Assembly (NCBI GenBank): GCA_031267175.1
Contig: JAIRZP010000003.1
Location: forward strand, 1-42,440
Reading direction: 5' to 3'
Length of the DNA: 42,440 nt
Source of the DNA: Coriobacteriales bacterium
GTDB taxonomy: Bacteria > Actinomycetota > Coriobacteriia > Coriobacteriales > UBA8131
This document shows, piece after piece, positions 2,061 to 14,611 of this stretch (within the stretch, counting starts at the first letter, position 1; every line of letters begins with the position of its first letter). Under the pieces are notes generated by a model that was not told the origin of the DNA, searched no databases, and saw only the letters and a list, made by a program, of their open reading frames with translations. The translations under genes and the position numbers were made by a program.

Positions 2061-2216
2061 ATGAGTGACAAGCGTTGTGTGGTGTGTGATGGCAACGGCA
2101 AGTGTGTGAGCTGCGAGGGTTCCGGCAGGAATCACCTCAATGCTCCCTGTGGTGGGTGCGGTGGTTCTGGAACGTGCCCTCGCTGCAAGGGCAGGGGTCG
2201 TGACCCCCAGAAGTAG
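2061..2216 (+). CDS. Free-standing DnaJ-type cysteine-rich zinc-finger protein, 51 aa (four CxxCxGxG motifs)
   Basis: AAGGAG sits 6 nt upstream of ATG 2061, so the track start at 2031 is less likely. The motifs CVVCDGNG, CVSCEGSG, CGGCGGSG and CPRCKGRG match the CxxCxGxG x4 signature of the DnaJ CR domain. Confidence 0.65.
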   Translation: MSDKRCVVCDGNGKCVSCEGSGRNHLNAPCGGCGGSGTCPRCKGRGRDPQK

Positions 2217-2271
2217 GGTTGTTAAGGCAAACCGCCAGCATTCAAGCTGGTATGACCGAAAGGAGAAAGAA

Positions 2272-2727
2272 ATGAGCACTTTTGCTTTGACCAACAACAA
2301 CGAGAAGGAGGACATCATGCAGGAGAAGGAGTATGACCAGAAGATGGTCGCCAGCACGGACACGGTAGTGGACAAGTCCAAGCTCACGAATCCGTGGGCG
2401 CGTAAGAACAGCGAGAAGGAGGACATCGTGAACGACAAGAAGTACGACCAGAAATTGGTGCCCGGCACCTTTGGCGGCGGAGTCCAAAGCCAGCGTCTGA
2501 CGCCGGGCACGTTCCGAGGCGGCGTGCAGTCTCAGCGTTTGACTCCCGGTACCTTCCGGGGTGGCATCCAGAGCCAACGCCTCACCCCTGGAACCTTCCG
2601 AGGCGGTGTGCAGAGCCAGCGCCTGACCCCAGGCACCTTCCGTGGAGGGGTACAGAGCCAGCGTCTGACGCCGGGCACTTTCCGCACCATCACCCTTACG
2701 GCTGGCCAGCTCCTCAAGCGCTACTGA
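2272..2727 (+). CDS. Tandem-repeat protein, 151 aa: duplicated EKEDI..YDQK leader followed by about 5.6 copies of a 14-aa unit QRLTPGTFRGG(V/I)QS
   Basis: AGGAG (2261-2265) sits 6 nt upstream of ATG 2272. The track's 2140 start overlaps the preceding ORF and has no SD. The repeats are in frame, and synonymous variation between copies argues for real coding. Confidence 0.75.
   Translation: MSTFALTNNNEKEDIMQEKEYDQKMVASTDTVVDKSKLTNPWARKNSEKEDIVNDKKYDQKLVPGTFGGGVQSQRLTPGTFRGGVQSQRLTPGTFRGGIQSQRLTPGTFRGGVQSQRLTPGTFRGGVQSQRLTPGTFRTITLTAGQLLKRY
2449..2685 (+). repeat. 42-bp (14-codon) in-frame tandem repeat array: one degenerate, four full and one truncated copy
   Basis: Unit starts are at 2449, 2491, 2533, 2575, 2617 and 2659, an exact 42-nt period. 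The peptide is nearly invariant while codons differ (Pro as ccg/ccc/cct/cca; Arg as cga/cgg/cgt/cgc). Confidence 0.95.
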
Positions 2728-2739
2728 TGCGCAGGGCTG

Positions 2740-2774
2740 TGGCGGCGCTCCGAGGATCAGTCGGAGCGCCGCCA
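2740..2774 (+). terminator. Strong GC-rich hairpin just after the repeat-protein stop codon; candidate attenuator or mRNA-stabilising stem-loop, with no U-tract
   Basis: tGGCGGCGCTCCGA (2740-2753), loop ggatcag, then TCGGAGCGCCGCCa (2761-2774). This is a perfect 14-bp stem starting 13 nt after the TGA at 2725-2727. Confidence 0.5.
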
Positions 2775-2847
2775 GTACGGCCGCCAAGCAATTCACGCGA
2801 AGGGCAAGCAGCAATACGGCCATCAATTTTGGAAGGAGGGAGCGAGG

Positions 2848-3282
2848 GTGTCAAGCATGACAGGCTGGTTGAACCGGAACTTCCCGGGTATCGCCAACAA
2901 GATCGGCTACTGCAAGCGTGTGTTTCAACCGCGAAGCGGGACGCTTGGTGCCACGCAGGGAGTGCATATGGATTACTACGGAAACATACCCGCCGATGCG
3001 GACGAGGAAGACATCTACGCAACCGAGGACGGCTACATGGAGGTAGCGTTCTGGTACCACCGCCTTGGCGAAGGCAACTGGAGGGTCTACATCCTTTCAG
3101 ACATCAACTATCACGGACGGGATTCTGGATCACATCCATCTCACCGCTATCACGACAGCACCTTGAATATGCACTACATCTGTTACGACCAGACAATCCG
3201 CACGAAGGCCGAGGCCAAGAACGTCTCAGCCGACTGGGCAGACCTTACCGCCCACTATATCCAGACAGGCACACCGTTCTAG
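2848..3282 (+). CDS. Small conserved-pair protein A (144 aa from GTG 2848, or 104 aa from ATG 2968); the Cys-containing paralog
   Basis: GGAAGGAGGG lies upstream of GTG 2848, and third-codon positions are G/C-rich from 2848 on. An alternative SD, AGGGAG, sits 6 nt before ATG 2968, where similarity to the next gene begins. Contains HPSHRYHDSTLNMHYICYD. The C-terminus VSADWADLTAHYIQTGT is shared with the next gene. Confidence 0.7.
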   Translation: MSSMTGWLNRNFPGIANKIGYCKRVFQPRSGTLGATQGVHMDYYGNIPADADEEDIYATEDGYMEVAFWYHRLGEGNWRVYILSDINYHGRDSGSHPSHRYHDSTLNMHYICYDQTIRTKAEAKNVSADWADLTAHYIQTGTPF

Positions 3283-3308
3283 TATCAACCAAGAGAAGGG
3301 AGTTATTG

Positions 3309-3632
3309 ATGAACATAGTTGAAGCTTCAAGCAGGGGCATACCCGCTGATGTGGACGAGACCGACGTCTACATGACCGAGGATGGCTACATCGCAATCGA
3401 GTTCTGGTACCACAGGATGCAGGACAACACCTGGAGGGTTTACATCATGTCCGACATCGACTATCACGGCAGGGATGTCAGCTCCAGTGTGTCACACACC
3501 CATTCTGATGACGGCAATGGGTACAAACACATTTCCTATGAGGCCGTCCAGGACAAGAAGACTGCCAAGGCTGTATCGGCCGACTGGGCAGACCTTACCG
3601 CCCACTATATCCAGACTGGCACAAGGTTTTAG
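3309..3632 (+). CDS. Small conserved-pair protein B (107 aa); Cys-less paralog of the preceding gene
   Basis: AAGGGAG lies upstream of ATG 3309. The protein aligns with protein A (IPADxDExDxYxTEDGY, FWYHR, WRVYIxSDIxYHGRD, VSADWADLTAHYIQTGT). The position equivalent to the Cys reads HISY. Confidence 0.75.
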   Translation: MNIVEASSRGIPADVDETDVYMTEDGYIAIEFWYHRMQDNTWRVYIMSDIDYHGRDVSSSVSHTHSDDGNGYKHISYEAVQDKKTAKAVSADWADLTAHYIQTGTRF

Positions 3633-3660
3633 AAACCTATCGAGAAAAGGAGACAATACC

Positions 3661-5277
3661 ATGAAGAGAGCAAAAGCAGGTAAGCAGAGCATCAATGCGA
3701 GGCACGTCACAGTGCACAACCGCTTCGGAGCAGCATGGTTGTGCATCACCGGCAGGGACATTGCATGGAAGAATGTTGAGCCCAAGATCATTCCTTTCGT
3801 CTTTCAGGATGCCGAAATCCTGTCGTCCGCTGGGCGAGCATCAACCGCAGGTAAGGCACCTCAAACCCTTTATACGGAGCCGATTCAGATAACTCATGAG
3901 GTCTACTCCATGATCAAGAACACCGTGGGAACGTTCCGTCCTGAGACCGGCATGATGCTTGGTACCAGCGACGGACAGGTAATCGACCATTGCTACTTCG
4001 ATGAAAACGCTCAAGTGAGCGGCGGCGAGTACAACCCGAACATTGACCATCTCAACGATATTGTCCTCCCGACGTGGAACTCCCGTGGCATCAGCATGGT
4101 GGGCTTCGTCCACTCCCACCCCTGTGGCTACTGCACCCCCAGTCCATGGGACATTCAGTACGCAGGAGAGTTACTCAGCATTCTGCCGGGTCTGTCCAAG
4201 TTCGTCATACCAATCGTCCAGAGCCGCGCCACCGGGCAGTTCAGCATCCAGTTCTACTGTGTGCGCCGCTCGCTCTCGAACGCGTCATTCGTGGAGCCAT
4301 GCAAGCACAAGATCATCTTCAGGAACAGGACAGATGAGGATGATGCCGTGACGAATGCCATGGCACTGCGCACCGGCGAGGTCTACCCCCGTGACGTGAT
4401 GGCCACGAAGACCGTCGTTGTCGTTGGCTGTGGTGGCTCCGGCGAGTATGTCGAGTACCTCGCCCGCTGCGGTGTCGGCAGGATAATCCTCATCGATGGG
4501 GATAAGTATGAGCGCTCGAACATCGAGACGCAGAAGGCATATACCGATGAGATTGGCGTGCCAAAGCCGTTCGCCCTTGCCACCCGCGTGGCAAGGATTG
4601 ATCCGGACATCGAGGTAGTGGCCGTACCCCACAATCTCGACAACGACTTTGAGGACGACGTGTTCGCAGCGCTGATTGGCCAAGACATCCTGACGGATCG
4701 ACCAAAGGACGTCCTGATTGCAGGCTGCACTGACGACTTCTATGCCCAGATGCGCACTGCCCGTCTGGCGTTGAACCTCAGCTGCCCCTATGTGGCAACC
4801 CAGATCTATGCCAGGGGAGACGGAGCCGAGGTCATATTCACCTACCCCGGTGTCACGGCTTCCTGCCCGCGCTGTATGCTCGGAAGCCGTTATGACGCAT
4901 ACCTTGAGGAAGGCTTTGTCAACGACACCACATCGGCGCAGGCACCGCTCTTCTGCACCCAGCGCGCCAATGCCACAGTGGGCTTCATCAGCTCAATGCT
5001 ACTGCTATACGGCTGTGCGCCAACAAGCCGCTTCAACGACGAGCTGGATAAGGTGAAGAACCGCAACTTCGTGCTTATCCGCATGAGGGACAGCTTCGAT
5101 GCGCCGCCCTTCGACGGCGGATTCGCCGAGAGCGGTTACACCTACTATGACGACACCGCATGGGTGATGCAGGTGCCTGATGACGGTCTGGATGGCCGAC
5201 CGCGCTGCCCAGACTGCCATGGCCATGGAAACCTTCTGGCACTTAAGGGTATGTGCCGGGATACACGCAAGCTCTAG
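3661..5277 (+). CDS. JAB/MPN(JAMM) metalloisopeptidase fused to a ThiF/MoeB/E1-like adenylyltransferase (538 aa)
   Basis: AAAGGAG sits 8 nt upstream of ATG 3661; the track's 3382 start overlaps the previous gene out of frame. JAMM motif HSHPCGYCTPSPWD, i.e. HxHx7Sx2D (4111-4152), with an upstream Glu in RPETGMMLG. E1 Rossmann motif VVVVGCGGSGEYVEYLARCGVGRIILIDGDKYERSNIETQ (GxGxxG at 4426-4443). Also the CTDD motif and paired CPRC and CPDC zinc motifs, as in ThiF/MoeB. Confidence 0.85.
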   Translation: MKRAKAGKQSINARHVTVHNRFGAAWLCITGRDIAWKNVEPKIIPFVFQDAEILSSAGRASTAGKAPQTLYTEPIQITHEVYSMIKNTVGTFRPETGMMLGTSDGQVIDHCYFDENAQVSGGEYNPNIDHLNDIVLPTWNSRGISMVGFVHSHPCGYCTPSPWDIQYAGELLSILPGLSKFVIPIVQSRATGQFSIQFYCVRRSLSNASFVEPCKHKIIFRNRTDEDDAVTNAMALRTGEVYPRDVMATKTVVVVGCGGSGEYVEYLARCGVGRIILIDGDKYERSNIETQKAYTDEIGVPKPFALATRVARIDPDIEVVAVPHNLDNDFEDDVFAALIGQDILTDRPKDVLIAGCTDDFYAQMRTARLALNLSCPYVATQIYARGDGAEVIFTYPGVTASCPRCMLGSRYDAYLEEGFVNDTTSAQAPLFCTQRANATVGFISSMLLLYGCAPTSRFNDELDKVKNRNFVLIRMRDSFDAPPFDGGFAESGYTYYDDTAWVMQVPDDGLDGRPRCPDCHGHGNLLALKGMCRDTRKL

Positions 5278-5292
5278 AGAAAGGGGATCGAA

Positions 5293-6615
5293 ATGTTGAT
5301 GAACGAGATGAGGCCGCTGGTAGGGCCGACCGTACGAGAGGCAGGGGCATCCAACAGCTGCGTTGCCCTGACATTCGACCTGCCGCCCACATGCGAACCA
5401 GCAGTCTGCCAATTCGGCTTTGAGAAACACGGCAATACGGGATTGGTCATGATTGAGGAAGGCGTCACCTACCACGGCAATAACCCCGAGTTCCGCGCCT
5501 TCGTCGAGGAGGGTACCTACTCCTATGCCAGCGAGGCCGATCTGCGCAGGTTCTTGGACGTACTCGATGCAGTCGTGGCCGCAGAGGGCATGGCTGCGGA
5601 AAACCGGGAAGAACGAGAGGGCAACCCAGGTGACGCTGACCAGGAGGCTCGTGGCGCTCAACTGGAGGTCATAAGGCTCTTTGATGAGGATGTGTTCAGG
5701 GTGTCCATGGGCGAGGACATCAGGGGCCAGGGCGAGGCCATAGAAGCCATTTTGCCGCTGCTGTCCACCGCAGTCAGGAAGCATCTCTCAAGCAGACCCT
5801 TGGTGGTCGTCCTTGCTGGGGAGACCAGCATCGGCAAGACCTCGTTTGCTGTCAAACTGGCCGAGGCAATCAATGCGGCCACCGGCGCTGAGTTCGGTAC
5901 CATCAGAATCGACATGAACCAACTTGGTGAGCGCCATGCCACCAGCCGCTTCTGGGGTCCACCTCCTGGATACGTCGGCTATGACCAGCCCACGGTGTTC
6001 GACCAGCTGCTGGAGAACCCCCGCCAGGTCATAGTCTGCGACGAGATGGAGAAGGGTGACCCCTTCATCATGAACGCATTGATGAACGCCATGGCAAGCG
6101 GGCGCATGGAAAGCTCCCGCATGCGCGAGGACGGCCGGGGCGAGTTCGACTTCTCCAAGAGCATCATGGTTTTCACCACAAACGTCGCCTTGGATGTCGA
6201 GGCCGACGCCACGCAGCGCGACATGACCCATGCCTGCAAGCAGCAGCTGCGCGACTACCACGCAAACGGCTACAGCTTCTCGCCAGAGATAGTCAACCGC
6301 TTCTCGGAGGTTATCGTCTTCAAGCCGATATCTGATGACGTGAAGCGTGAGATAGCCGAACTGTCCATTGTACGGCTTGCCCGTCAGTTCGAACTTGTCG
6401 TGGAGCATGTGGATGCAGATCTGCTCACGGCCTTTGCGGAGCGCTGCATCGCCGAGGAGGGCGTCCGGGAATTCGAGTACGAGGCGGAGCGTGTTTTCGG
6501 CGTTGCGATGGCCAACTACGACCAGGAAGCAGAAGGGCATACAGTCGCTGTGACCGGCACGATTGACGATCCCGTTGTCGAGCGTGCCGATGGTGCTGAG
6601 GTCCCAAATGGGTAA
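5293..6615 (+). CDS. AAA+ ATPase resembling the second nucleotide-binding domain (D2) of ClpA/ClpB, with a unique N-terminal region of about 170 aa
   Basis: GQGEAIEAI..., Walker A GETSIGKT (5818-5841), IRIDMNQLGERHATSRFWGPPPGYVGYDQ, Walker B VIVCDEMEK, MASGRMES...GRGEFDF, VFTTN and SPEIVNRFSEVIVFKPIS. These track the ClpB D2 consensus (IRIDMSEY..H.VSRLIGAPPGYVGY, DEIEKAH, DDGRLTD..GR.VDF, PEFLNRID). Confidence 0.85.
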   Translation: MLMNEMRPLVGPTVREAGASNSCVALTFDLPPTCEPAVCQFGFEKHGNTGLVMIEEGVTYHGNNPEFRAFVEEGTYSYASEADLRRFLDVLDAVVAAEGMAAENREEREGNPGDADQEARGAQLEVIRLFDEDVFRVSMGEDIRGQGEAIEAILPLLSTAVRKHLSSRPLVVVLAGETSIGKTSFAVKLAEAINAATGAEFGTIRIDMNQLGERHATSRFWGPPPGYVGYDQPTVFDQLLENPRQVIVCDEMEKGDPFIMNALMNAMASGRMESSRMREDGRGEFDFSKSIMVFTTNVALDVEADATQRDMTHACKQQLRDYHANGYSFSPEIVNRFSEVIVFKPISDDVKREIAELSIVRLARQFELVVEHVDADLLTAFAERCIAEEGVREFEYEAERVFGVAMANYDQEAEGHTVAVTGTIDDPVVERADGAEVPNG

Positions 6616-6624
6616 GTGGACTGC

Positions 6625-6657
6625 CTGGGGCATCCGCACGGCTTGTGGATGCCCCAG
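6625..6657 (+). promoter_or_regulatory. Perfect 11-bp stem-loop in the intergenic gap after the ClpB-like gene
   Basis: CTGGGGCATCC (6625-6635), an 11-nt loop, then GGATGCCCCAG (6647-6657). It begins 10 nt after the stop at 6613-6615 and has no U-tract. Confidence 0.4.
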
Positions 6658-6686
6658 AAATTCTAACAGATTGGAGGATGGTTAAC

Positions 6687-7382
6687 ATGACTGCTGTATT
6701 GACTGCCGTGGCTGCGGTGCCATATGACCCTATGCAGGAGGTTTGGGACGTGATGGCGAGTATCGGACGCTGGGTTCTCGGCATCCTGGCCATTCTGGTG
6801 ATTATGAATGTTGTGTACTCCATCGTGAACACCATAAATAAGGGAAAGAAGGTGGAGGCTACTCTTAGCACACGGTTCATGGAAGTCCAGAACCAGCTGG
6901 CTGACTGCATGTTCCGTATTCGTTCCATTGGTAGCATTACAAATTCTGAGGCAGCCTTCCTAGAGACAATAATGCATGAAGCCATTTCAGGGCGCTATGG
7001 AGAAGGCCAGGGGGCTAACGCATTTATCCTTGCCGAGAACTACCCTGAGTTGGCAGGCGCTTCGGTACCGTTTGAGAGAATTGCCGAGGCCATCAATGGA
7101 TCGATGGCCGATTTCAGGAGACAGCAAAGCTCGCTTCTATCTCAGTTGGAACAATTCGAACACTGGCGTACGGGGACACTGTTGTCTCGTATCGTGATAG
7201 GAAACAGATACCCTGACCGCGATCTTATCGCAAGGATCGGCAACAACACATACTACGGGCCGGAAGCCCTGGAGCAGATGTATCGCATAGTGCATACCAG
7301 CGAGTCGCTCCAAGCTTACAACGAGGCCATTTTAACCCCATATGACCACAATGGATATGCCCTTGACGCAGGGCTTGACTAG
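6687..7382 (+). CDS. LemA-like single-pass membrane protein (231 aa)
   Basis: GGAGG (6673-6677) sits 9 nt upstream of ATG 6687. An N-terminal TM helix (WVLGILAILVIMNVVYSIV) is followed by helical segments. AENYPELAG and downstream residues resemble the LemA AENYPDLKA block. Assigned from memory of the LemA consensus. Confidence 0.55.
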   Translation: MTAVLTAVAAVPYDPMQEVWDVMASIGRWVLGILAILVIMNVVYSIVNTINKGKKVEATLSTRFMEVQNQLADCMFRIRSIGSITNSEAAFLETIMHEAISGRYGEGQGANAFILAENYPELAGASVPFERIAEAINGSMADFRRQQSSLLSQLEQFEHWRTGTLLSRIVIGNRYPDRDLIARIGNNTYYGPEALEQMYRIVHTSESLQAYNEAILTPYDHNGYALDAGLD

Positions 7383-7406
7383 GATGAATCGAGGAGTTGA
7401 ACTTGG

Positions 7407-8084
7407 ATGGTTACTAAGGCCATTACACGCGATGACTACAGGGCGAAGCTGTTCACTCCGCTGAGCAGCACATTTGGGGTGCCGATTGCCTTCAACGGCG
7501 AGAGTAACGCTGGTCGGATTGCCGGTGGCAGGACACTTGGGATATATGTTCATGCTGACCACGCCATAGTAATCAGATACCGCGATTGTCCCGTGTCGCT
7601 GTTCAAGACGGTTGCCCATGAGATAGGCCATGCCACCGACCCCTCACTCAGTCCAGAGGCACTGAGTTCTGTGGAGCCACAACTGCATGGCGGCCACAGG
7701 AGCTATGAAGAGGCCGTGGCCCGGTTCGTTTCCTACTATTCTCTCTGTTATGCAGGCGTAAAGGTTCCCAGCGAAAAGGTTCGCGCCGACGAGCTGCTGG
7801 CTAAGCACGAGCGTGTCTATAGAAGGTATAAAACCGAGCCGCTGAAGCTCCACATCTTGAACCTGATGGAGATAGCCGAGGTCATCGCCTTCGTTGCCAA
7901 GCCGGGACGGATGGAGCTGTTGGATGGATGGAGCGACGATTGGGGGTCCTGCAAGTTCTGCAGGGACTATCCAAAGGGCATAAGACCCTGCAAGTTGCTG
8001 GCGGAGCCAGTGGTTGAGAAAGCGGGCGGCAGAGCTGCCGCCCGTCGCAAGAACAAAAGGAAGCGTAGTAAGAATTATGCATAA
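7407..8084 (+). CDS. Putative zinc metallopeptidase (HExxH), family unassigned, with a basic C-terminal tail
   Basis: GAGGAG lies upstream of ATG 7407. VAHEIGHAT contains HEIGH at 7617-7631. The C-terminus is RAAARRKNKRKRSKNYA. Confidence 0.6.
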   Translation: MVTKAITRDDYRAKLFTPLSSTFGVPIAFNGESNAGRIAGGRTLGIYVHADHAIVIRYRDCPVSLFKTVAHEIGHATDPSLSPEALSSVEPQLHGGHRSYEEAVARFVSYYSLCYAGVKVPSEKVRADELLAKHERVYRRYKTEPLKLHILNLMEIAEVIAFVAKPGRMELLDGWSDDWGSCKFCRDYPKGIRPCKLLAEPVVEKAGGRAAARRKNKRKRSKNYA

Positions 8085-8097
8085 GGAGGTAGTTCAC

Positions 8098-9093
8098 ATG
8101 AGAAATAAAGTTATCGCAATTGGTGAACATGCATCAAAGGTTGTCGAGGAAATCGAGAATCGCTATATCTATAAAATGGCGCGAGGTCAAAAAGGAGTGC
8201 CGCTCGAAATCCCAATGATCAAACAGGTGAGCCCATTTCTATGCAAGTTCGATATCCTCAGCGTAGTCGATGCAGATACAGACTTCATCCGCATTAATGA
8301 AGTATCGATTCTAAATGGATGTTGGCGAGCGAACTTTACAGCCATGGCTTTGGAGCAAGGAAAGGCGCTGATTGGCGACAACGTTTTCTTTGTAATTGCG
8401 CGAGGCGACGATGAAGCCATGAGCACCGTTAGTCACTCTGTCAAATCCAAAAAAATGAAAGGAAAAGAGTTGGTTGTCTGTTTTCTGTTGGATTATTCGA
8501 CCGCACAAGCTCAAATAGAAGGCGAAAGCGCTGCATGTGAAGCAAGGCTGGCGGAGGAAATCGATGCTTTGGTAGTCGTTCCCGTTAACGGACTCGCAGA
8601 CTTTTCTCAGATTAAATCACTAACAGAAGATTCAAATAATGCAAAGTGGCGTGCCGCCAGGGAGGCAGGCAAGGATAGTATTACTGTAACGACTTCTCCA
8701 TTTCATGATGAAAAAAGTGCTGCCGCATATGCTATTTGGATCTTTTTACAGGCAGTTTCTAAGAGCGACGAAAGCCTGAATTCCATGTCAGATGGTATTA
8801 AAACTGCAATTAACGATTTAGGTATAGTTCACCTTGCCCTTAAGATGTCTTTAATGGACTGCAAGAACGAATTTGTTGTAGAGAATGCCATAAGGAACCT
8901 CTGCGACAAAACTGATTCCTCAACAGTTAACCATTCTCTTGCAATTATCGCTTCCGTAAATACCTGTATGTCGGCATATACCGGGGCTGTCATTGGTGCG
9001 TCTATGGATCCAACAAACCTAGAATTTGCTTTTGAGTGTGTCTTTGATGACATCTTGAAGGATTGGCTTGTCGTGGTTTATGTGGTGGCATAA
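8098..9093 (+). CDS. FtsZ/tubulin-like protein with degenerate GTP-binding loops (331 aa); homology tentative
   Basis: AAGGAGG sits 8 nt upstream of ATG 8098. By eye it is colinear with FtsZ:
- NKVIAIGEHASKVVEEI vs IKVIGVGGGGNNAVNRM
- FDILSVVDADTDF vs VEYIAVNTDAQAL
- DNVFFVIARGDDEAMSTVSHSV vs [22 protein letters not shown]
- IDALVVVPVNGL vs VDTLIVIPNDRI
- C-terminal NLEFAFECVFDDILKDWLVVVYVVA vs NMIFGSVINENLKDEIVVTVIATG
The glycine-rich T1 and T4 loops are replaced. The gene is visibly AT-rich. Confidence 0.4.
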   Translation: MRNKVIAIGEHASKVVEEIENRYIYKMARGQKGVPLEIPMIKQVSPFLCKFDILSVVDADTDFIRINEVSILNGCWRANFTAMALEQGKALIGDNVFFVIARGDDEAMSTVSHSVKSKKMKGKELVVCFLLDYSTAQAQIEGESAACEARLAEEIDALVVVPVNGLADFSQIKSLTEDSNNAKWRAAREAGKDSITVTTSPFHDEKSAAAYAIWIFLQAVSKSDESLNSMSDGIKTAINDLGIVHLALKMSLMDCKNEFVVENAIRNLCDKTDSSTVNHSLAIIASVNTCMSAYTGAVIGASMDPTNLEFAFECVFDDILKDWLVVVYVVA

Positions 9094-10338
9094 ATGGCTG
9101 CAAGTCAGACAAATATCATTGACTTCAAGAAGGCTCGAGCCGAATTGAAGAGGAGCGAGCGACTGGTCACCTTGCCCATCAGACGCTCCAGGCTCAAGTC
9201 CAGGGCAGCAGCCATTCTGCTGGTTGCATTGGCCGTTGCCGTATCGGCAGTTGCTCTGGTTGCTAGGTTCATAGACAATGCCATGTATCCCAGCGACTGG
9301 TTCAATCCCTTGTCGCTGCTGGTATGGTTCGTAATTGGCCTTACCGCATTGGCTTGCGGATGGGCGTTGTTTGATGCTGGGTCACTCTATCAGAATCGTT
9401 GGTGGGTCTGGGGTGCAACGGTGTTGATGTTCTGGCTGCTCTGGACTTTTGGCGACCACTATTGGCGCTATCTCTATCTCAAAATAGGCGATGTCCACAT
9501 CCCGTCGCAGGCGTTCATTGTTATGGTTGTCGTGTCTCTCACGCTCCTCGTGGAGACTCAGCGCAAGCGTGGGGTGTGGGGGATGTATTTTTTTGCTGTC
9601 GGCCTTATGGTTGTGGCTGCTGCATCAGTATTCTTCAGCATATCGTTGTCGTTTTTAACCGTTTTTGTGTGCATCGTGGTAATTGGTACTGCTGTCGCCA
9701 GGAACCACTATGGCGACAGGCGGTGTAGGAAGGTGTTCATCGTTGGTGCTAGCATTGTGCTGTTGGCGGTGGCCTCCTATATCATAGTCGGGACGCAGCG
9801 AGTAGATCGCCTGTCAGTGTTCTTTACGGATGGCGCGAGTGATCCGTTGGACTATGATTATCAGTTCCAAGCAGCGGATATGATTGGCTATGCTTCTCAG
9901 CTTTTAGGCCAACTCGAAGAAATGACCGACGAGGTTTTTCTTGCCAGAAGCCTGTTCGGGTATTCAGATTATCCATTTCTGGACATAGGGTTCGTCTTTG
10001 GGCGTCTTCCCTCTCTGGCTGTTGTGGCAGCGTGTCTGGTGACAGCCTGGCTTGCACTCAGGGCTTCACGATATGATGCAAATCGTTACGGCGGTCTAAT
10101 TACGACTGGGCTTGCGGCAACCATCGCCTTCCAGGTGCTGTTTGGGATACTGAACAACTATGGACTGACTCCCTCTGCAAGCTCAATCACAGTACCGCTG
10201 GGTAGCGAGACCGGGTTGCCTTTGGTGCTTCATATGTTCATGGTGTGGGCATTGGCCTCAGCCCTCTGGAAGCCGCGACTGCCCAATTTAACAGAACCGC
10301 TTAGGGAGAAGACCCAACGCTGGAGGAAGGCTGCATGA
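9094..10338 (+). CDS. Divergent SEDS (FtsW/RodA/SpoVE)-like polytopic membrane protein (414 aa)
   Basis: ATG 9094 abuts the previous stop (TAAATG). There are about 10 hydrophobic segments. The C-terminal half is colinear with FtsW/RodA:
- DRLSVFF..DPLDYDYQFQAADMIG vs RL..[21 protein letters not shown]
- GYSDYPFLDIGFVFG vs LPEAHTDFIFAIIGEE
- TIAFQVLFGILNNYGLTPSASSITVPLGSETG vs [32 protein letters not shown]
Several signature residues are substituted. Confidence 0.55.
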   Translation: MAASQTNIIDFKKARAELKRSERLVTLPIRRSRLKSRAAAILLVALAVAVSAVALVARFIDNAMYPSDWFNPLSLLVWFVIGLTALACGWALFDAGSLYQNRWWVWGATVLMFWLLWTFGDHYWRYLYLKIGDVHIPSQAFIVMVVVSLTLLVETQRKRGVWGMYFFAVGLMVVAAASVFFSISLSFLTVFVCIVVIGTAVARNHYGDRRCRKVFIVGASIVLLAVASYIIVGTQRVDRLSVFFTDGASDPLDYDYQFQAADMIGYASQLLGQLEEMTDEVFLARSLFGYSDYPFLDIGFVFGRLPSLAVVAACLVTAWLALRASRYDANRYGGLITTGLAATIAFQVLFGILNNYGLTPSASSITVPLGSETGLPLVLHMFMVWALASALWKPRLPNLTEPLREKTQRWRKAA

Positions 10339-12242
10339 GCGGCAGAGCCCACAAGACCCGCATTATGCTGATGGTGCTGGTCGATGTCTCTTGCGCAGAC
10401 GAGTCGGATCAGGCTTGCAGGGAGCGCCTGGCCTCGCTCGATGATGCCGTCAACTCCTACAAGAAGGAACTGAGACGTATGGGAGCGGGACATAACGTTG
10501 TGATTGCAACCGCCGCCTTTGCAAACAGGCTCTTCGACCACTCTGCATTCAACAACGACTCGCGTGTTGACTTCTCCCCAGTCGTGAGCGATTCCTCTTG
10601 CTGGGCAGAACCGTTAGCATGGGCAATGAAAAAGATTGAGCATGCGAAAAAGGTCTATGACCTCGAAAACGCGATCCATTTCCCGCCGATAGTACTGTTC
10701 TTCTCCGCATCCAACACTGAAGACAGGTACGGCGAGGCTATCGAAGCCCTGCGCGATGCTCGTGCAAATGGCGATATCACAGTAAGGGCTATCGGCACAA
10801 AGGGCAGACCTGAGCTGCTGGCTCTCCAAGGTATGACGGATGACGTGGTATTGGTTGATCCCAAAGACACGACAGGTTGGGTTGAGGAGTTCTTCCGTAC
10901 CACCGACATGATAAAGGCGGTCTTGAATGGCAAAAGGCCATTCGATTCAGTGGCTGTCAAGACGCTGATCAACGAGACAATCAATACTCTGGATTTGGGA
11001 GCTGGCGTATTCCCGGAGCAGGCTATGGCCAAGATTTCTATGGCGCTAAAGAAGCAGAACGCCGTTGTTCGCAACAAGCTGGACCTGGAATCTGATGCTA
11101 CGTTCAGTATCGAAGAGGCGCGTGCTGTCGTGAAGGCGCTGAACTCGATGTGCGACAGGATGCCCGAGCGATGCCGAGGGTTTGCCGAGGACATTGGCGT
11201 TCAATACAGGGCGGCATCCAGTGCGAGGACTCCCTCGTCGCCAGAAGATGACAGCAGGAGACTCAGCGAAGAGTCTTCTGGGGATTCTGCCGTTCAGTCG
11301 CTGCCTAAGAAGAACAAGAAGGGCAAGAAGGCCACCGAGCAAGATGTTCCGAAGACTATGGAGCTGCCGCTGGAGATTATGACCAAATCCGAGATGGAGC
11401 TCGCTGCCCTCATCGGCCTTGATGAGGTCAAAGCGGTGGTGGGAAAGATAGTCGCTCTGGCTAAGCTCAACAAGAGGTATCCCCGACGCGGCAAGCCAAG
11501 ACAAACCTTTTTGCACATGGCATTTCTGGGGAACCCGGGTACTGCCAAGACCACTGTCGCACGTCTGCTGGCGAAGATTCTCCAAGAGCATGGCATCCTT
11601 CGTAAGGCCGAGCTAGTGGAGGTTGGCAGGGATGGCCTCATCGGTAGATACGTAGGCTCCACTGCGCCAAAGGTTGTCGCGGCATTCGACAAGGCCAAGG
11701 GCAGCATACTGTTCATCGACGAGGCACACTCTCTCGTTGACAGCGGACGCGGAGACTATGGAGACGAGGCACTGGCGACGATAGTGAAGGAGATGGAAAA
11801 TCGATGCGGTGACCCAGTGGTAATCATGGCTGGCTACCCACGGGAGATGGAGGCGCTGTTGCATCAAAACGCAGGACTGAAAAGTCGTATCAAGTTCATC
11901 GTGAACTTCCCCGACTATTCCGATGAGGAGATGCTCATGATTGCGGAGCGAACAGCGAAACAATACGGCTATGCGCTTGCTGGCGGCATTCGCGAAAAAG
12001 TGATGTCTATGATTGCCGAGGCTAGGAGAGACGAGACATTCGGCAATGGCCGTTGGGCACGGAGCCTCATTGAGCAGGCGGAGCTAAACCTCGCCGACCG
12101 CCTCATCAAGCTGAGCATCGACGAGATTGACGACGCTATGCGGAACACACTGACAGCTAAGGACTTCGAAACCCCACCTGACATCAAGCTCAAACACAGA
12201 AAGCAGAAAATCGGCTTCATGCCACAAGAGCGCAACAAGTAA
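10335..12242 (+). CDS. vWA-like N-terminal domain fused to a CbxX/SpoVK/EccA-type AAA+ ATPase (635 aa)
   Basis: The start overlaps the upstream stop (ATGA at 10335-10338). The N-terminus RIMLMVLVDVSCADES...IVLFFSASNTED...ITVRAIGTKG has a vWA-like strand pattern, but the DxSxS MIDAS motif looks degenerate. The C-terminus has LIGLDEVKAVV, Walker A GNPGTAKT (11529-11552), GRYVGSTAPKV, Walker B ILFIDEAHSL, VIMAGYPREM and GLKSRIKFIVNFPDYSDEEM, the classic CbxX/SpoVK layout. Confidence 0.8.
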   Translation: MSGRAHKTRIMLMVLVDVSCADESDQACRERLASLDDAVNSYKKELRRMGAGHNVVIATAAFANRLFDHSAFNNDSRVDFSPVVSDSSCWAEPLAWAMKKIEHAKKVYDLENAIHFPPIVLFFSASNTEDRYGEAIEALRDARANGDITVRAIGTKGRPELLALQGMTDDVVLVDPKDTTGWVEEFFRTTDMIKAVLNGKRPFDSVAVKTLINETINTLDLGAGVFPEQAMAKISMALKKQNAVVRNKLDLESDATFSIEEARAVVKALNSMCDRMPERCRGFAEDIGVQYRAASSARTPSSPEDDSRRLSEESSGDSAVQSLPKKNKKGKKATEQDVPKTMELPLEIMTKSEMELAALIGLDEVKAVVGKIVALAKLNKRYPRRGKPRQTFLHMAFLGNPGTAKTTVARLLAKILQEHGILRKAELVEVGRDGLIGRYVGSTAPKVVAAFDKAKGSILFIDEAHSLVDSGRGDYGDEALATIVKEMENRCGDPVVIMAGYPREMEALLHQNAGLKSRIKFIVNFPDYSDEEMLMIAERTAKQYGYALAGGIREKVMSMIAEARRDETFGNGRWARSLIEQAELNLADRLIKLSIDEIDDAMRNTLTAKDFETPPDIKLKHRKQKIGFMPQERNK

Positions 12243-12285
12243 AACCGCTAAGGTTACTGTCATAGATTGAGAGGTTGGCCAAGAA

Positions 12286-13302
12286 ATGGTAGAACAGACT
12301 AAGAATATTGCAAAAGCGTATTCTCTGCTTGGCTTGGAATATGGCTCAGATTTGCACACCATCCACAGAATGTGGAAAAGGAAACTAAAAGAGTCCCATC
12401 CCGACTTTGGTAAAGATAAAAAGGATGAACTACGAAGAACAAAGCGTGCGCAGGAGCTGAACGAAGCTTATAAAGTCCTGGGGAATGCCTGTCGGAAGGG
12501 TTTGATTCCACAGGGAAAAAAGCCAACCAAAGCTCAACCAGCGCCCATCCCAAGCCCAAACACTGAAGCAAAAACGAATAAAGGCATAAATTCAAAGCTT
12601 CGACCCAAACGCCCTGACCATGGCAATGCGAAGCGTGAAGATGCTTTTGCTGATCTCTATCAGTCATGGTGCGACAAAAAGTTTTGGGTGGACGAGCTTG
12701 CAATACTTTCAGAAAACCCGCAGGTAGCGCTTCCAAGAGATGTCTGTGATGCTCTGGAGTGCATTATCAGAAGCGTTTCGCGGCATAGCGTTATGAAGGA
12801 GTGGTGGTGGCCAGATATTCGCATTCTGCGCCCCCCATACCGGAAGTATGCTTATCCAGGAAGTGGTACCGCCCTAATTACCAAGCGTCTAGAGCACATG
12901 GTCAGATGTCTCGGCTTAAAGAGTATCGGGCAGGAGGATTTTTGCAATTTGAGATCGCTGCTGTGGGTGACGTTCGGTTCAATGCTGAAAGACAGAATCG
13001 GAGCAGAACCGGGTTTGTTCGACCTCTTTTTTGCAGTGAACACAGAAAATACTAAACTGGTAGAGTCTTGGATAAAGATGTATCAGCCAGGATATATAAA
13101 CAGCCGAGTCTATCGGCAAATGTCCGCACGAAACAAGGGGAAGCGGAAACCGGGGAAGCTCGCCTACGCTCGCGAGGTCTGGTATGTGCAGCACAAAGGC
13201 AGAAGGCTTGAGGAAGATGTCTACAAAAAATTGGAGCAGGCCTGTCAGCTTTATGTTGTTCGCACAATCATCAAGTATGAATGGCCCCAGGACTCATTGT
13301 GA
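12286..13302 (+). CDS. J-domain (DnaJ N-terminal domain) protein with an unknown C-terminal region of about 230 aa (338 aa)
   Basis: AYSLLGLEYGSDLHTIHRMWKRKLKESHPDFGKD...AQELNEAYKVLGN, with the HPD tripeptide at 12397-12405. There is no Gly/Phe region and no zinc finger. The gene is AT-richer than its neighbours. Confidence 0.8.
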   Translation: MVEQTKNIAKAYSLLGLEYGSDLHTIHRMWKRKLKESHPDFGKDKKDELRRTKRAQELNEAYKVLGNACRKGLIPQGKKPTKAQPAPIPSPNTEAKTNKGINSKLRPKRPDHGNAKREDAFADLYQSWCDKKFWVDELAILSENPQVALPRDVCDALECIIRSVSRHSVMKEWWWPDIRILRPPYRKYAYPGSGTALITKRLEHMVRCLGLKSIGQEDFCNLRSLLWVTFGSMLKDRIGAEPGLFDLFFAVNTENTKLVESWIKMYQPGYINSRVYRQMSARNKGKRKPGKLAYAREVWYVQHKGRRLEEDVYKKLEQACQLYVVRTIIKYEWPQDSL

Positions 13303-13316
13303 GCGACGGTCATGCA

Positions 13317-13347
13317 GAAGAACTGGCTAAGCCAGCCTTCTTCTTTG
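13317..13347 (+). terminator. Candidate intrinsic terminator closing the long plus-strand operon
   Basis: GAAGAACTGGC, loop TAA, then GCCAG-CC-TTCTTC followed by TTTG. It starts 15 nt after the J-protein stop. The stem is imperfect and the U-tract short. Confidence 0.45.
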
Positions 13348-13455: not shown

Positions 13456-13482
13456 CTAACCTATTACGAGCTTGAGGTGAAG

Positions 13483-14034
13483 ATGAATCGGTTGATGAGC
13501 GAAATCCTATATGATGACAACAAGCAGGAGATTGGTCGTGTGGCTTTCAGGCAAGTGATTATCAGGGCGCATCCCATCTTGCAGCGGCTGGATGACGAGG
13601 GGCTTCCACCGGGCAGCTCAGCGTTGGTGTTAGTGACAGACTGGTCGTTCGAGGAGGGCGACGCCTGTGGCGGCTTCGCTTGCGAGCTGAGGGTTGAGTT
13701 TTCCGATGTCACCAATGCGAGGCGTAAGGACTCCATGAAGCCGGAACATGCCCAGACGATAGCCAGATTCATCAGATCTCTCGGCGAGCACATCGACAGC
13801 ATCGTAATCAGCTGTGCCGGGGGCATGTCGAGAAGCCCAGCAATCGCGGCCGCAATCATGTTGGCGCAAGGCCAAGCTGACATGGCTATCTGGGAGAACC
13901 CCAACTACTCACCCAACCCGCTCTGTTATCGCCTAATGCTGGAGGCATTCGGTTTGCCTACTGACCAGGTGAAGAGCAAAATCAAAACCAGCAAGAGAGC
14001 CTTTGAAACAGCGTTTGGCCGGTGCACGGAGTGA
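13483..14034 (+). CDS. Cys-based phosphatase-like protein (CX5R P-loop; PTP/DSP superfamily), 183 aa
   Basis: GAGG sits 5 nt upstream of ATG 13483. IVISCAGGMSRSPAIAAAIML contains C-A-G-G-M-S-R-S, i.e. CX5R(S/T), at 13813-13833. Confidence 0.55.
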   Translation: MNRLMSEILYDDNKQEIGRVAFRQVIIRAHPILQRLDDEGLPPGSSALVLVTDWSFEEGDACGGFACELRVEFSDVTNARRKDSMKPEHAQTIARFIRSLGEHIDSIVISCAGGMSRSPAIAAAIMLAQGQADMAIWENPNYSPNPLCYRLMLEAFGLPTDQVKSKIKTSKRAFETAFGRCTE

Positions 14035-14056: not shown

Positions 14057-14611
14057 TTAGGAAACAATCTCTACAATATCGGCAACCTGCTTGCCAGATG
14101 ATTTGCCGTACTCAAGCAGGGCTTTTGCAAGCATGTCGATGGCTTGCCACTGATGTGTGAGTTCTTCAGACCACTGCCGAATGAGATCAGTGCGAGTATT
14201 ACCTTGAGCGTTGCAAAACTCCTGTTCTCGCAATATCTCGTTTATTGCGGGATACCAGTCATTATGGTCGTCTCCGAGCTCATATGAATCCTTGAGACTC
14301 TCGCGATTCATCTCAATATAGTCATCAAGAGAAAGTTCGTTATTTTCTCCGCCATCCAGGCGCCATTGTTCTTGACTCTCTGCAAATACCCCAGCAAACA
14401 AGACAAAGACATCAGCATGATTTGCTGTTCCAGTGTGAGCATAGCCCAGTGTCCCGTAGTCGCTGTTAGAAATTATTGTGACTGTTCCAGCTGAACCAGG
14501 ATGCCGCAGTTCAGCCGCCACTGCATGACCAGCCTCGTGAAAGGCAATCAGCGTTAGCTCTAATTCAGACAAGCCATACGGGTTTGGGATTGCTGGATTC
14601 AACGGAGTCAC
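14057..14611 (-). CDS. Stand-alone FtsH-type (M41-like) zinc metallopeptidase domain protein, with no AAA+ module and no TM (184 aa)
   Basis: LIAFHEAGHAVAAELRHPGSAGTVTIISNSDYGTLGYAH resembles the FtsH segment AYHEAGHAIVG..P..DPVHKVTIIPRG.ALG. HEAGH is at 14525-14539. It is the last gene of the minus-strand backbone unit. Confidence 0.5.
   Translation of the reverse strand: MTPLNPAIPNPYGLSELELTLIAFHEAGHAVAAELRHPGSAGTVTIISNSDYGTLGYAHTGTANHADVFVLFAGVFAESQEQWRLDGGENNELSLDDYIEMNRESLKDSYELGDDHNDWYPAINEILREQEFCNAQGNTRTDLIRQWSEELTHQWQAIDMLAKALLEYGKSSGKQVADIVEIVS

Follow-up and report, generated by a model that had tools for sequence, protein, structure and literature searches.

What are two adjoining genes with apparent ties to the bacterial divisome doing in the cargo of a conjugative element? 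The genes, A and B, lie at positions 8,098 to 10,338 of contig JAIRZP010000003.1 (assembly GCA_031267175.1, Coriobacteriales bacterium); the window, by which we mean the whole stretch of DNA that was analyzed, spans 42,440 nucleotides of this contig. An initial annotation, made from the sequence alone, described a mobile-element-borne pair of degenerate division proteins, namely an FtsZ-like protein lacking its GTP loops (A) and a divergent FtsW/RodA-like membrane protein (B). We find this description to be half right: there is a real, unusual gene of the SEDS (shape, elongation, division and sporulation) type in mobile cargo, and beside it an orphan that is not callable as FtsZ. Our overall reading, to which we give a probability of roughly 0.5, is that these are two real, coupled genes in the cargo of an integrative and conjugative element (ICE), encoding a divergent SEDS protein (B) and a non-FtsZ orphan (A), and that they would form a membrane module in a conflict or accessory system. 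The arrangement of the two genes and of the gene that follows them, C, is as follows.

8083 to 8089, forward strand: Shine-Dalgarno sequence AAGGAGG, 8 nt 5' of the ATG of gene A, read from the sequence
8098 to 9093, forward strand: gene A, an open reading frame (ORF) of 331 aa with ATG at 8098 and TAA at 9091-9093
9091 to 9096, forward strand: the A/B junction, TAA followed directly by ATG, so that stop and start codons abut
9094 to 10338, forward strand: gene B, ATG at 9094, a 414-aa membrane protein that is a very divergent homolog of the SEDS proteins (FtsW/RodA/SpoVE)
10335 to 12242, forward strand: gene C, 635 aa, its start overlapping the stop of B

The coupling proposed in the initial annotation is borne out by the TAAATG junction, which can be read directly in the sequence. 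Gene B has no strong Shine-Dalgarno sequence of its own, and this, together with the abutting stop and start codons, suggests that translation of A and B is coupled by termination-reinitiation. The stop of B and the start of C overlap in turn as ATGA at 10335-10338. A Logan assembly contig (run SRR14710922) is identical to positions 7949-10347 of the window, and the A/B junction is thus reproduced in a second assembly; in a word-index search, the window was the sole long contig carrying proteins A and B. Gene A differs from its neighbors in composition, with a GC content at third codon positions (GC3) of 0.42 (overall GC 0.43) compared with 0.50-0.74 in the remaining operon genes, which suggests a separate origin. 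The DnaJ gene of the same operon also has a low GC3, 0.50, and the operon is a compositional mosaic.

Gene B and the SEDS superfamily

SEDS proteins are chromosomally encoded core polymerases of the cell wall, which act together with class B penicillin-binding proteins (PBPs). Three independently curated models of these proteins match B weakly, colinearly and over their full length. The Pfam model PF01098 does so at E 1.7e-3, pairing B 42-384 with profile positions 6-344 of 356 (17.8 bits against a curated cut-off of 26.4); TIGR02210 (rodA) gives E 4.4e-4 (19.5 bits, threshold 336.7) and TIGR02614 (ftsW) E 6e-3 (15.7 bits, threshold 337.5). Since all three matches are sub-threshold, B was compared with a custom FtsW profile. 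The source loci were the dcw clusters of 80 gammaproteobacterial genomes and 80 actinobacterial-type metagenome contigs. A genome scan with E. coli FtsZ gave Gammaproteobacteria only, and hence a narrow profile; a metagenome scan with a five-sequence FtsZ alignment as seed gave the 80 actinobacterial-type FtsZ loci with their flanking FtsW genes. From these dcw loci, 46 non-redundant real FtsW sequences were extracted and built into the profile.

Against this profile, hhalign aligns B 38-411 with FtsW 52-414 over 349 columns at a probability of 96.3% and an E value of 1.6e-9. HMMER scores B at 20.7 bits, compared with 9.2 bits for the best of 1000 composition shuffles and -13.4 bits for the reversed sequence. 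Among 1,386 real ORFs of the fetched loci, B ranks right after 39 true SEDS proteins, and the best of about 1,300 non-SEDS decoys reaches 3.6 bits. Furthermore, in a panel of nine family profiles (MurD, FtsQ and LpxC were left out), FtsW alone stands out for B; polytopic MraY does not, so that the SEDS signal is no membrane-composition artefact. On these comparisons B is a genuine, full-length, extremely divergent member of the SEDS superfamily. The FtsW/RodA-like assignment of the initial annotation is thereby upheld, whereas its restriction of the likeness to the C-terminal half of SEDS proteins is not, as the whole protein matches.

The degree of divergence is considerable. B is 18-19% identical to gammaproteobacterial and actinobacterial FtsW alike, whereas FtsW proteins of these two phyla are about 33% identical to each other. 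B is hence a far outlier and no recent copy of a host FtsW. A word-index protein search with B returned only B itself, a viral-contig scan found no relatives, and tblastn against plasmids and phages gave nothing significant, the best match being Acinetobacter ftsW at E 0.2-0.5. Two records filed as 'Acinetobacter phage MD-2021a' (CAKLQH020000023.1 and CAKLQF020000026.1) carry an annotated ftsW whose match is identical to the chromosomal Acinetobacter gene; these are probably bacterial contigs filed under phage.

The topology of B also follows the SEDS plan. Hydropathy peaks, together with the helices of a low-confidence model, indicate about ten transmembrane (TM) helices; both termini are rich in Lys and Arg, which by the positive-inside rule would place them in the cytoplasm, and a large outer loop lies between TM7 and TM8, as in SEDS proteins. 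The single-sequence AlphaFold2 model of B has a predicted local distance difference test (pLDDT) score of 48.0, and its weak Foldseek matches to EccD of ESX systems were treated as noise for that reason. Several parts of B, some of them in extracytoplasmic loops (ECL), can be placed against functional blocks of the superfamily.

9790 to 9984, forward strand: counterpart of ECL4, the long extracytoplasmic loop between TM7 and TM8 (B 233-297), from hhalign and HMMER alignments
9967 to 9969, forward strand: codon of Asp292, which pairs with the Asp that is putatively catalytic in SEDS polymerases
9496 to 9522, forward strand: counterpart of the outer-loop block QPSExxK (B 135-143, HIPSQAFIV), from hmmalign and alignment-dependent
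10189 to 10221, forward strand: counterpart of LPLxSYGGSS (B 366-376, TVPLGSETGLP), from hmmalign and hhalign

In the ECL4 counterpart, RVDRLSVFF...DPLDYDYQ of B corresponds to R..R..F..DP..GYQ of SEDS proteins and YSDYPF to HTDFIF. Asp292 aligns with D297 of E. coli FtsW (D275 in PaFtsW, D255 in TtRodA), the putative catalytic residue of ECL4, whose mutation abolishes activity (PMC10764723). B thus keeps the blocks R..R..F, DP..YQ, xSD(F/Y)xF and FQ...P...P..S..G, catalytic Asp included. Of the 38 columns conserved to 90% or more in SEDS proteins, 17 carry the same residue in B, where shuffled sequences reach at most 6; the residues kept include Arg236, Arg239, Gln257, Asp292, Gln347, Pro360, Pro368, Ser371 and Gly374.

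Other positions are replaced. The Glu-Lys pair of the SEDS QPSExxK block is known from RodA structures to be functionally important. In the ECL2 block of B, Pro137 is kept, the Gln is deleted, Glu has become Gln139 and Lys Ile142, and the invariant Trp upstream has become Tyr128, all of these assignments being alignment-dependent. In the SYGGSS region, Pro368, Ser371 and Gly374 remain, with Tyr replaced by Glu and the first Gly by Thr373. Asp197, the Glu-Glu pair that follows HTDFIF, Asn359 and several glycines are lost as well. The strings SDYPFLD (B 291-297) and GSETGL (B 370-375), quoted in the initial annotation as substituted hallmark blocks, are present, and both alignments proposed for them, with HTDFIF and with SYGGSS, are recovered to within one residue. 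The further claim that the pair is catalytically impaired does not follow for B, given that the putative catalytic D292 is kept and impairment is not established either way.

This pattern of retention raises the possibility that B is an active polymerase of peptidoglycan, or of another undecaprenyl-linked glycan, working for the element in wall remodeling or repair, for example at the conjugation channel or in a surface change, with A as an unrelated accessory. The survival of Asp292, R..R..F, DP..YQ and other cavity residues at about 18% identity speaks for such a function, the Asp is required for SEDS activity (PMC10764723), and the element encodes a CHAP wall hydrolase beside the operon. 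We nevertheless regard this explanation as unlikely. Substitutions affect the Trp, Glu and Lys of ECL2 as well as a number of invariant Gly, Glu and Asn positions, and no transpeptidase or PBP domain, as expected of a class B partner, was found in the scanned window ORFs, although the host may encode one. Moreover, B lies in an operon of tagging and AAA+ proteins on the strand opposite the transfer genes and is coupled to genes for cytoplasmic proteins. Its place in ICE cargo, rather than in a dcw, mrd or spoV context, also sets it apart from known SEDS genes.

Gene A and the comparison with FtsZ

Protein A is acidic, soluble and predicted to be of alpha/beta type, with no predicted TM segment. 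An exhaustive phmmer search of 1.84 billion cluster representatives (about 15 billion proteins) returned only A itself and one artefact, P0003 (1402 aa), which we rejected as a relative because its score is the sum of 19 weak matches to tandem repeats. The word-index search found A alone, tblastn against plasmids and phages gave nothing significant, and comparison with the other operon proteins revealed no match and no internal paralogy. No FtsZ or tubulin match was obtained for A in Pfam, NCBIfam, PADLOC or PHROGs, and none of the Pfam tubulin-clan models matched at E<=10, whether A was searched whole or in halves. The weak matches that did appear are chance-like (MMS19_N in Pfam and three PHROGs of unknown function), and phmmer against the sequences of the PDB gave one chance-level match, to an acyl-carrier-protein reductase at E about 1, and no FtsZ.

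Direct comparisons with FtsZ lead to the same result. BLASTP of A against E. coli FtsZ (a sequence validated by its 99% identity to Citrobacter FtsZ) gave a best E value of 0.14 in a single comparison. Against a profile of 41 real FtsZ sequences, A scores 3.1 bits in HMMER, a value equaled by 11 of 1000 shuffles, and it ranks 14th among about 1,295 non-FtsZ decoys. With hhalign, only three short patches align, at a probability of 3% or less, and the broader five-sequence FtsZ alignment gives a probability of 0.8% (E=0.069, 19 columns). With narrow profiles, A scores no higher with FtsZ than with MraY or MurG, and in a forced alignment it is identical at 5 of the 124 invariant FtsZ columns, as are 17 of 200 shuffles.

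According to the initial annotation, A follows FtsZ colinearly across its two domains and has had its glycine-rich loops replaced, GEHASK standing for the T1 loop and RGDDEAM for the T4 loop. Both strings are present (A 9-14 and A 102-108), but no aligner recovers the proposed register, and the colinearity fails: the patches that resemble FtsZ are 14-31 residues long and, in HMMER, scrambled in order, A 85-118 pairing with profile positions 222-251, 149-170 with 155-176 and 186-205 with 123-142. These FtsZ regions are the C-terminal domain, H5-S6 and S5, respectively, so that the RGDDEAM region pairs with the C-terminal domain and not with T4. Only one patch pairs with FtsZ repeatedly; it is short and lacks significance (hhalign, 14 columns, P=0.014; HMMER, 0.4 bits for the domain).

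8542 to 8598, forward strand: patch of A, residues 149-167, ARLAEEIDALVVVPVNGLA, which pairs with helix H5, strand S6 and 'IPND' of FtsZ

Motifs of nucleotide binding are likewise missing from A. Its glycine content is 4.5%, it contains no GG dipeptide, and none of its 7-mers agrees with GGGTGTG at more than 2 of 7 positions. The T7 loop motif NxDxxD finds no match even in the relaxed form [ND]x[DE]xx[DE], and a search for Walker A and NKxD motifs found none, which also rules out GEHASK as a P-loop. A C-terminal linker or peptide for FtsA, ZipA or SepF is absent from A. The single-sequence AlphaFold2 model of A has a pLDDT of 33.8 and gives no Foldseek match to the PDB at E<=1e-3. FtsZ chains do occur in the list, at ranks 2, 13, 14, 18, 19, 21 and 34, among generic Rossmann-like noise with TM-scores around 0.17, and the top probabilities belong to universal stress proteins rather than FtsZ; at this model quality we treated both groups of matches as noise.

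How do these results bear on the idea that A is a degenerate FtsZ without GTP loops which, with the FtsW-like B, forms a mobile pseudo-divisome that poisons, scaffolds or decoys the host divisome? Several observations are consistent with it: B is truly SEDS-like, A is of a size similar to the FtsZ core and predicted to be alpha/beta, the patch at A 149-167 recurs against H5-S6, the HMMER score lies in the top ~1% of shuffles and decoys, and FtsZ chains appear, weakly, among the matches of a poor model. There is also a precedent in conflict systems, whose MinD/ParA and FtsK domains are predicted to lack activity and in which FtsZ/tubulin domains occur rarely as effectors (PMC7159879). Yet FtsZ was selected for the initial annotation from the same local resemblances, so the p~0.01 is not independent of the choice of hypothesis, and the curated-model, profile, colinearity and invariant-column results all count on the other side. 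The comparison with the most divergent FtsZ families described, FtsZl1 and FtsZl2, points the same way, as in these the GGGTG(S/T)G loop is preserved and HHpred finds matches (Makarova and Koonin 2010, PMC2875224), unlike A, which has neither the GG dipeptide nor the T7 motif nor a profile match. We consider the pseudo-divisome very unlikely. As far as its sequence can tell, A is an orphan of the cytoplasm, of alpha/beta type, for which neither a relation to FtsZ or tubulin can be demonstrated nor a nucleotide-binding motif found. Given that the model of A is unusable, we regard the FtsZ reading as unsupported rather than refuted, the resemblance not exceeding chance. The profile searches thus separate the two proteins, with a SEDS match for B and no FtsZ or tubulin match for A, and the notions of an FtsZ/FtsW pair, of a divisome poison and of a decoy lose half their basis.

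The operon and its host element

Genes A, B and C belong to an operon whose order is RGG-repeat protein, two small paralogs, a JAB-E1 fusion, a ClpB-D2-like AAA+ protein, a single-TM protein, an HExxH-motif (metallopeptidase-like) protein, A, B, C and a DnaJ-domain protein.

2140 to 13302, forward strand: the operon, a same-strand run of roughly 11 kb with gaps of 121 nt or less between annotated genes
2140 to 2727, forward strand: the RGG-repeat gene, with an array at 2464-2684 of 5.3 tandem 14-aa units GTFRGGVQSQRLTP
2968 to 3282 and 3309 to 3632: the two small paralogs, 104 and 107 aa long and 55% identical to each other, both with a Shine-Dalgarno sequence of their own
13477 to 14034: a Cys-phosphatase-like gene downstream of the operon

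The only forward-strand terminator-like site lies at 13323-13335, with none earlier in the operon. The C-terminal part of C is an AAA+ ATPase of the SpoVK/CbbX/EccA type (Pfam AAA and AAA_lid_6; NCBIfam TIGR02881 at 1.5e-69, TIGR02880 and TIGR03922). Its N-terminal ~335 aa (10335-11339) have no homolog and no Pfam match, and homologs of C cover the AAA domain only (about 41% coverage), with no shared architecture. A von Willebrand factor A (vWA) domain at this N-terminus, proposed by eye from a likeness of DVSCA to a metal-ion-dependent adhesion site, is not supported by Pfam.

The neighboring enzymes are intact. JAB-E1 matches the Pfam models ThiF (E 6e-21) and Prok-JAB (E 5e-4) and retains its JAMM motif HSHPCGYCTPSPWD, the GCGGSG loop and the CxxC pairs; the CX5R motif is likewise intact, and the HPD motif of the DnaJ protein can be read from the translation. 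Since these enzymes keep their catalytic motifs, the operon does not appear to be decaying. This bears on the view that neither gene has a function: B would be a SEDS remnant in decay, A an ORF of foreign or de novo origin that was inserted recently, and both would merely be carried along by read-through of the operon. The two proteins are indeed singletons in very large databases, the GC3 of gene A is anomalous, and more than half of the invariant SEDS positions are lost in B. Against this stand two long intact ORFs (331 and 414 codons), the precise stop-start and ATGA junctions, the consensus Shine-Dalgarno sequence of A, the preserved ten-helix hydropathy of B, the clustering of its retained residues in functional blocks and the state of the neighboring enzymes. 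It is therefore improbable that both genes are mere passengers.

The remainder of the window (14057-42413) is a conjugative backbone with its transfer genes on the strand opposite the operon, which agrees with the earlier statement that the pair is borne on a mobile element. It encodes a relaxase, a VirD4-type coupling protein, VirB4 (CD1110 family), a CHAP hydrolase, ArdC, MT-A70, Toprim/DUF3991, PcfM, an SNF2 helicase and an SpaA pilin. In a Monoglobus pectinilyticus record, the slot that follows the CHAP gene of a syntenic element is filled by tet(O/32/O) and tet(40), so that the operon described here occupies the variable cargo slot of this family of elements. The VirB4 of the window is 62-67% identical to proteins from Clostridia records; the element is thus of Clostridia type, although the metagenome-assembled genome is labeled Coriobacteriales. 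Between the operon and the CHAP gene, a 184-aa ORF on the reverse strand (14057-14611) has a weak, sub-threshold match to Peptidase_M41, the FtsH protease domain (E 4e-4).

Relatives of the operon as a whole are scarce. A megablast search against plasmids and E. coli genomes gave no match, and viral-contig scans with the JAB-E1 and ClpB-like proteins found no relatives. In PADLOC, the ClpB-like and AAA+ proteins match the DolB, PDC-M37B and IetA models and the E1 matches E1-E2 models, which by sequence lends the operon a defense flavor and no more. A parallel in gene order is found in the multiubiquitin-E2/UBC-(JAB-)ThiF cassettes of plasmids and ICEs, which share the upstream order of repeat protein, small proteins and JAB-E1. 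One such multiubiquitin-E2-ThiF cassette, on Celeribacter pP73C, holds the nearest relative of the JAB-E1 among plasmids (only 26% identity, over half its length); unlike the operon described here, this cassette has no SEDS-like, orphan or AAA+ genes. Pfam searches for multiubiquitin or E2 domains in the repeat protein and the small paralogs gave no match, so that the gene order alone resembles the cassette.

The small genes have features of their own. At the protein level the units of the repeat array are near-identical, yet their DNA is matched at only 74%, and the many synonymous differences point to selection on the peptide. Each 14-aa unit carries RGG, like the tail of ubiquitin, and the gene lies just upstream of the intact JAB-E1; speculatively, its product may be a polyprotein of short GG-ended tags. 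The two small paralogs share an identical C-terminal VSADWADLTAHYIQTGT. Where one contains HPS...ICYD, the other has HISYE, Ser standing in place of Cys, and both lie where multiubiquitin-E2-ThiF cassettes such as that of pP73C have their E2 gene; the two may be an E2/UEV-like pair. A 301-aa ORF at 2727-3632 overlaps both paralog genes, its C-terminal part being the second paralog; it is probably not the real gene, and the annotation here is ambiguous. The single-TM protein (245 aa, 6645-7382), whose residues 43-194 match phrog_1383 (annotated 'virion structural protein') with an E value of 1.6e-13, is the only orphan-looking protein of the operon with a solid family match.

Two further bodies of work describe loci with which this one might be compared. 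FtsZl1 genes lie in operons with uncharacterized membrane proteins, vWA proteins and DnaJ-related domains (Makarova and Koonin 2010, PMC2875224), and NTP-dependent conflict systems comprise multigene operons that combine AAA+ proteins and chaperones (DnaJ, HSP70) with cell-division-related domains (Kaur, Burroughs, Iyer and Aravind 2020, PMC7159879). The operon shares the latter theme of AAA+ proteins, chaperones and a cell-division domain. Unlike the systems of Kaur et al., it shows no detected MoxR-vWA or GTPase (GAP1/DO-GTPase) core, by which those systems are defined: the bpMoxR match of its AAA+ proteins reaches only E 0.068, and their types are SpoVK/CbbX/EccA and ClpB-D2. SEDS, FtsW and RodA are nowhere mentioned in that study (PMC7159879). 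Because the FtsZ-like families keep the GTP loop and the defining cores of the conflict systems are absent here, the locus is a member of neither.

A proposed membrane module in mobile cargo

The reading we favor begins from the gene junctions. The abutting stop and start codons of A and B and the ATGA overlap of B and C suggest that the three proteins, C being the AAA+ protein of SpoVK/EccA type, are produced jointly and probably function at the membrane as a single module. B would be its membrane-embedded subunit, a sensor or effector at the envelope, and as it keeps the outer-face catalytic Asp and the blocks nearby, it may still bind an undecaprenyl-linked wall precursor. A would be the dedicated cytoplasmic partner of B, and C would remodel the A-B complex. 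The module might then work in a conflict or accessory system together with JAB-E1 tagging, the ClpB-like unfoldase, the DnaJ-domain protein and the HExxH-motif protein.

Several points weigh against this reading. No homolog was found of A, of B (word-index search) or of the N-terminus of C, and there is hence no support from conservation or co-occurrence for a joint function of the three proteins or for selection on it. B lies under the curated threshold of every SEDS family model (PF01098, TIGR02210, TIGR02614), and the models of A and B, at pLDDT 34 and 48, show nothing on folds or interfaces. The GC3 mismatch of gene A may mean a recent insertion with no functional link to its neighbors. 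Finally, we infer the conflict-system role from context alone.

A more elaborate version can be imagined, in which a SEDS polymerase scaffold has been repurposed as a membrane sensor or effector with the orphan A and the AAA+ protein C, under the control of JAB-E1. The tags would be short RGG-ended peptides cut from the repeat precursor, once activated, the module would halt or redirect wall synthesis or cell division when a phage attacks or elements are in conflict, and A could have a tubulin fold beyond detection by sequence. We hold this full scheme to be quite doubtful.

For A, the pseudo-FtsZ hypotheses should not be carried forward without a structure of the protein. What the locus offers is a single occurrence of an extremely divergent SEDS protein as the cargo of a conjugative element, coupled to an orphan and an AAA+ ATPase. 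If functional, B would be an unusual case of the SEDS scaffold being recruited to an accessory task or to conflict, and it would give a handle on the role of the surrounding, largely orphan operon.

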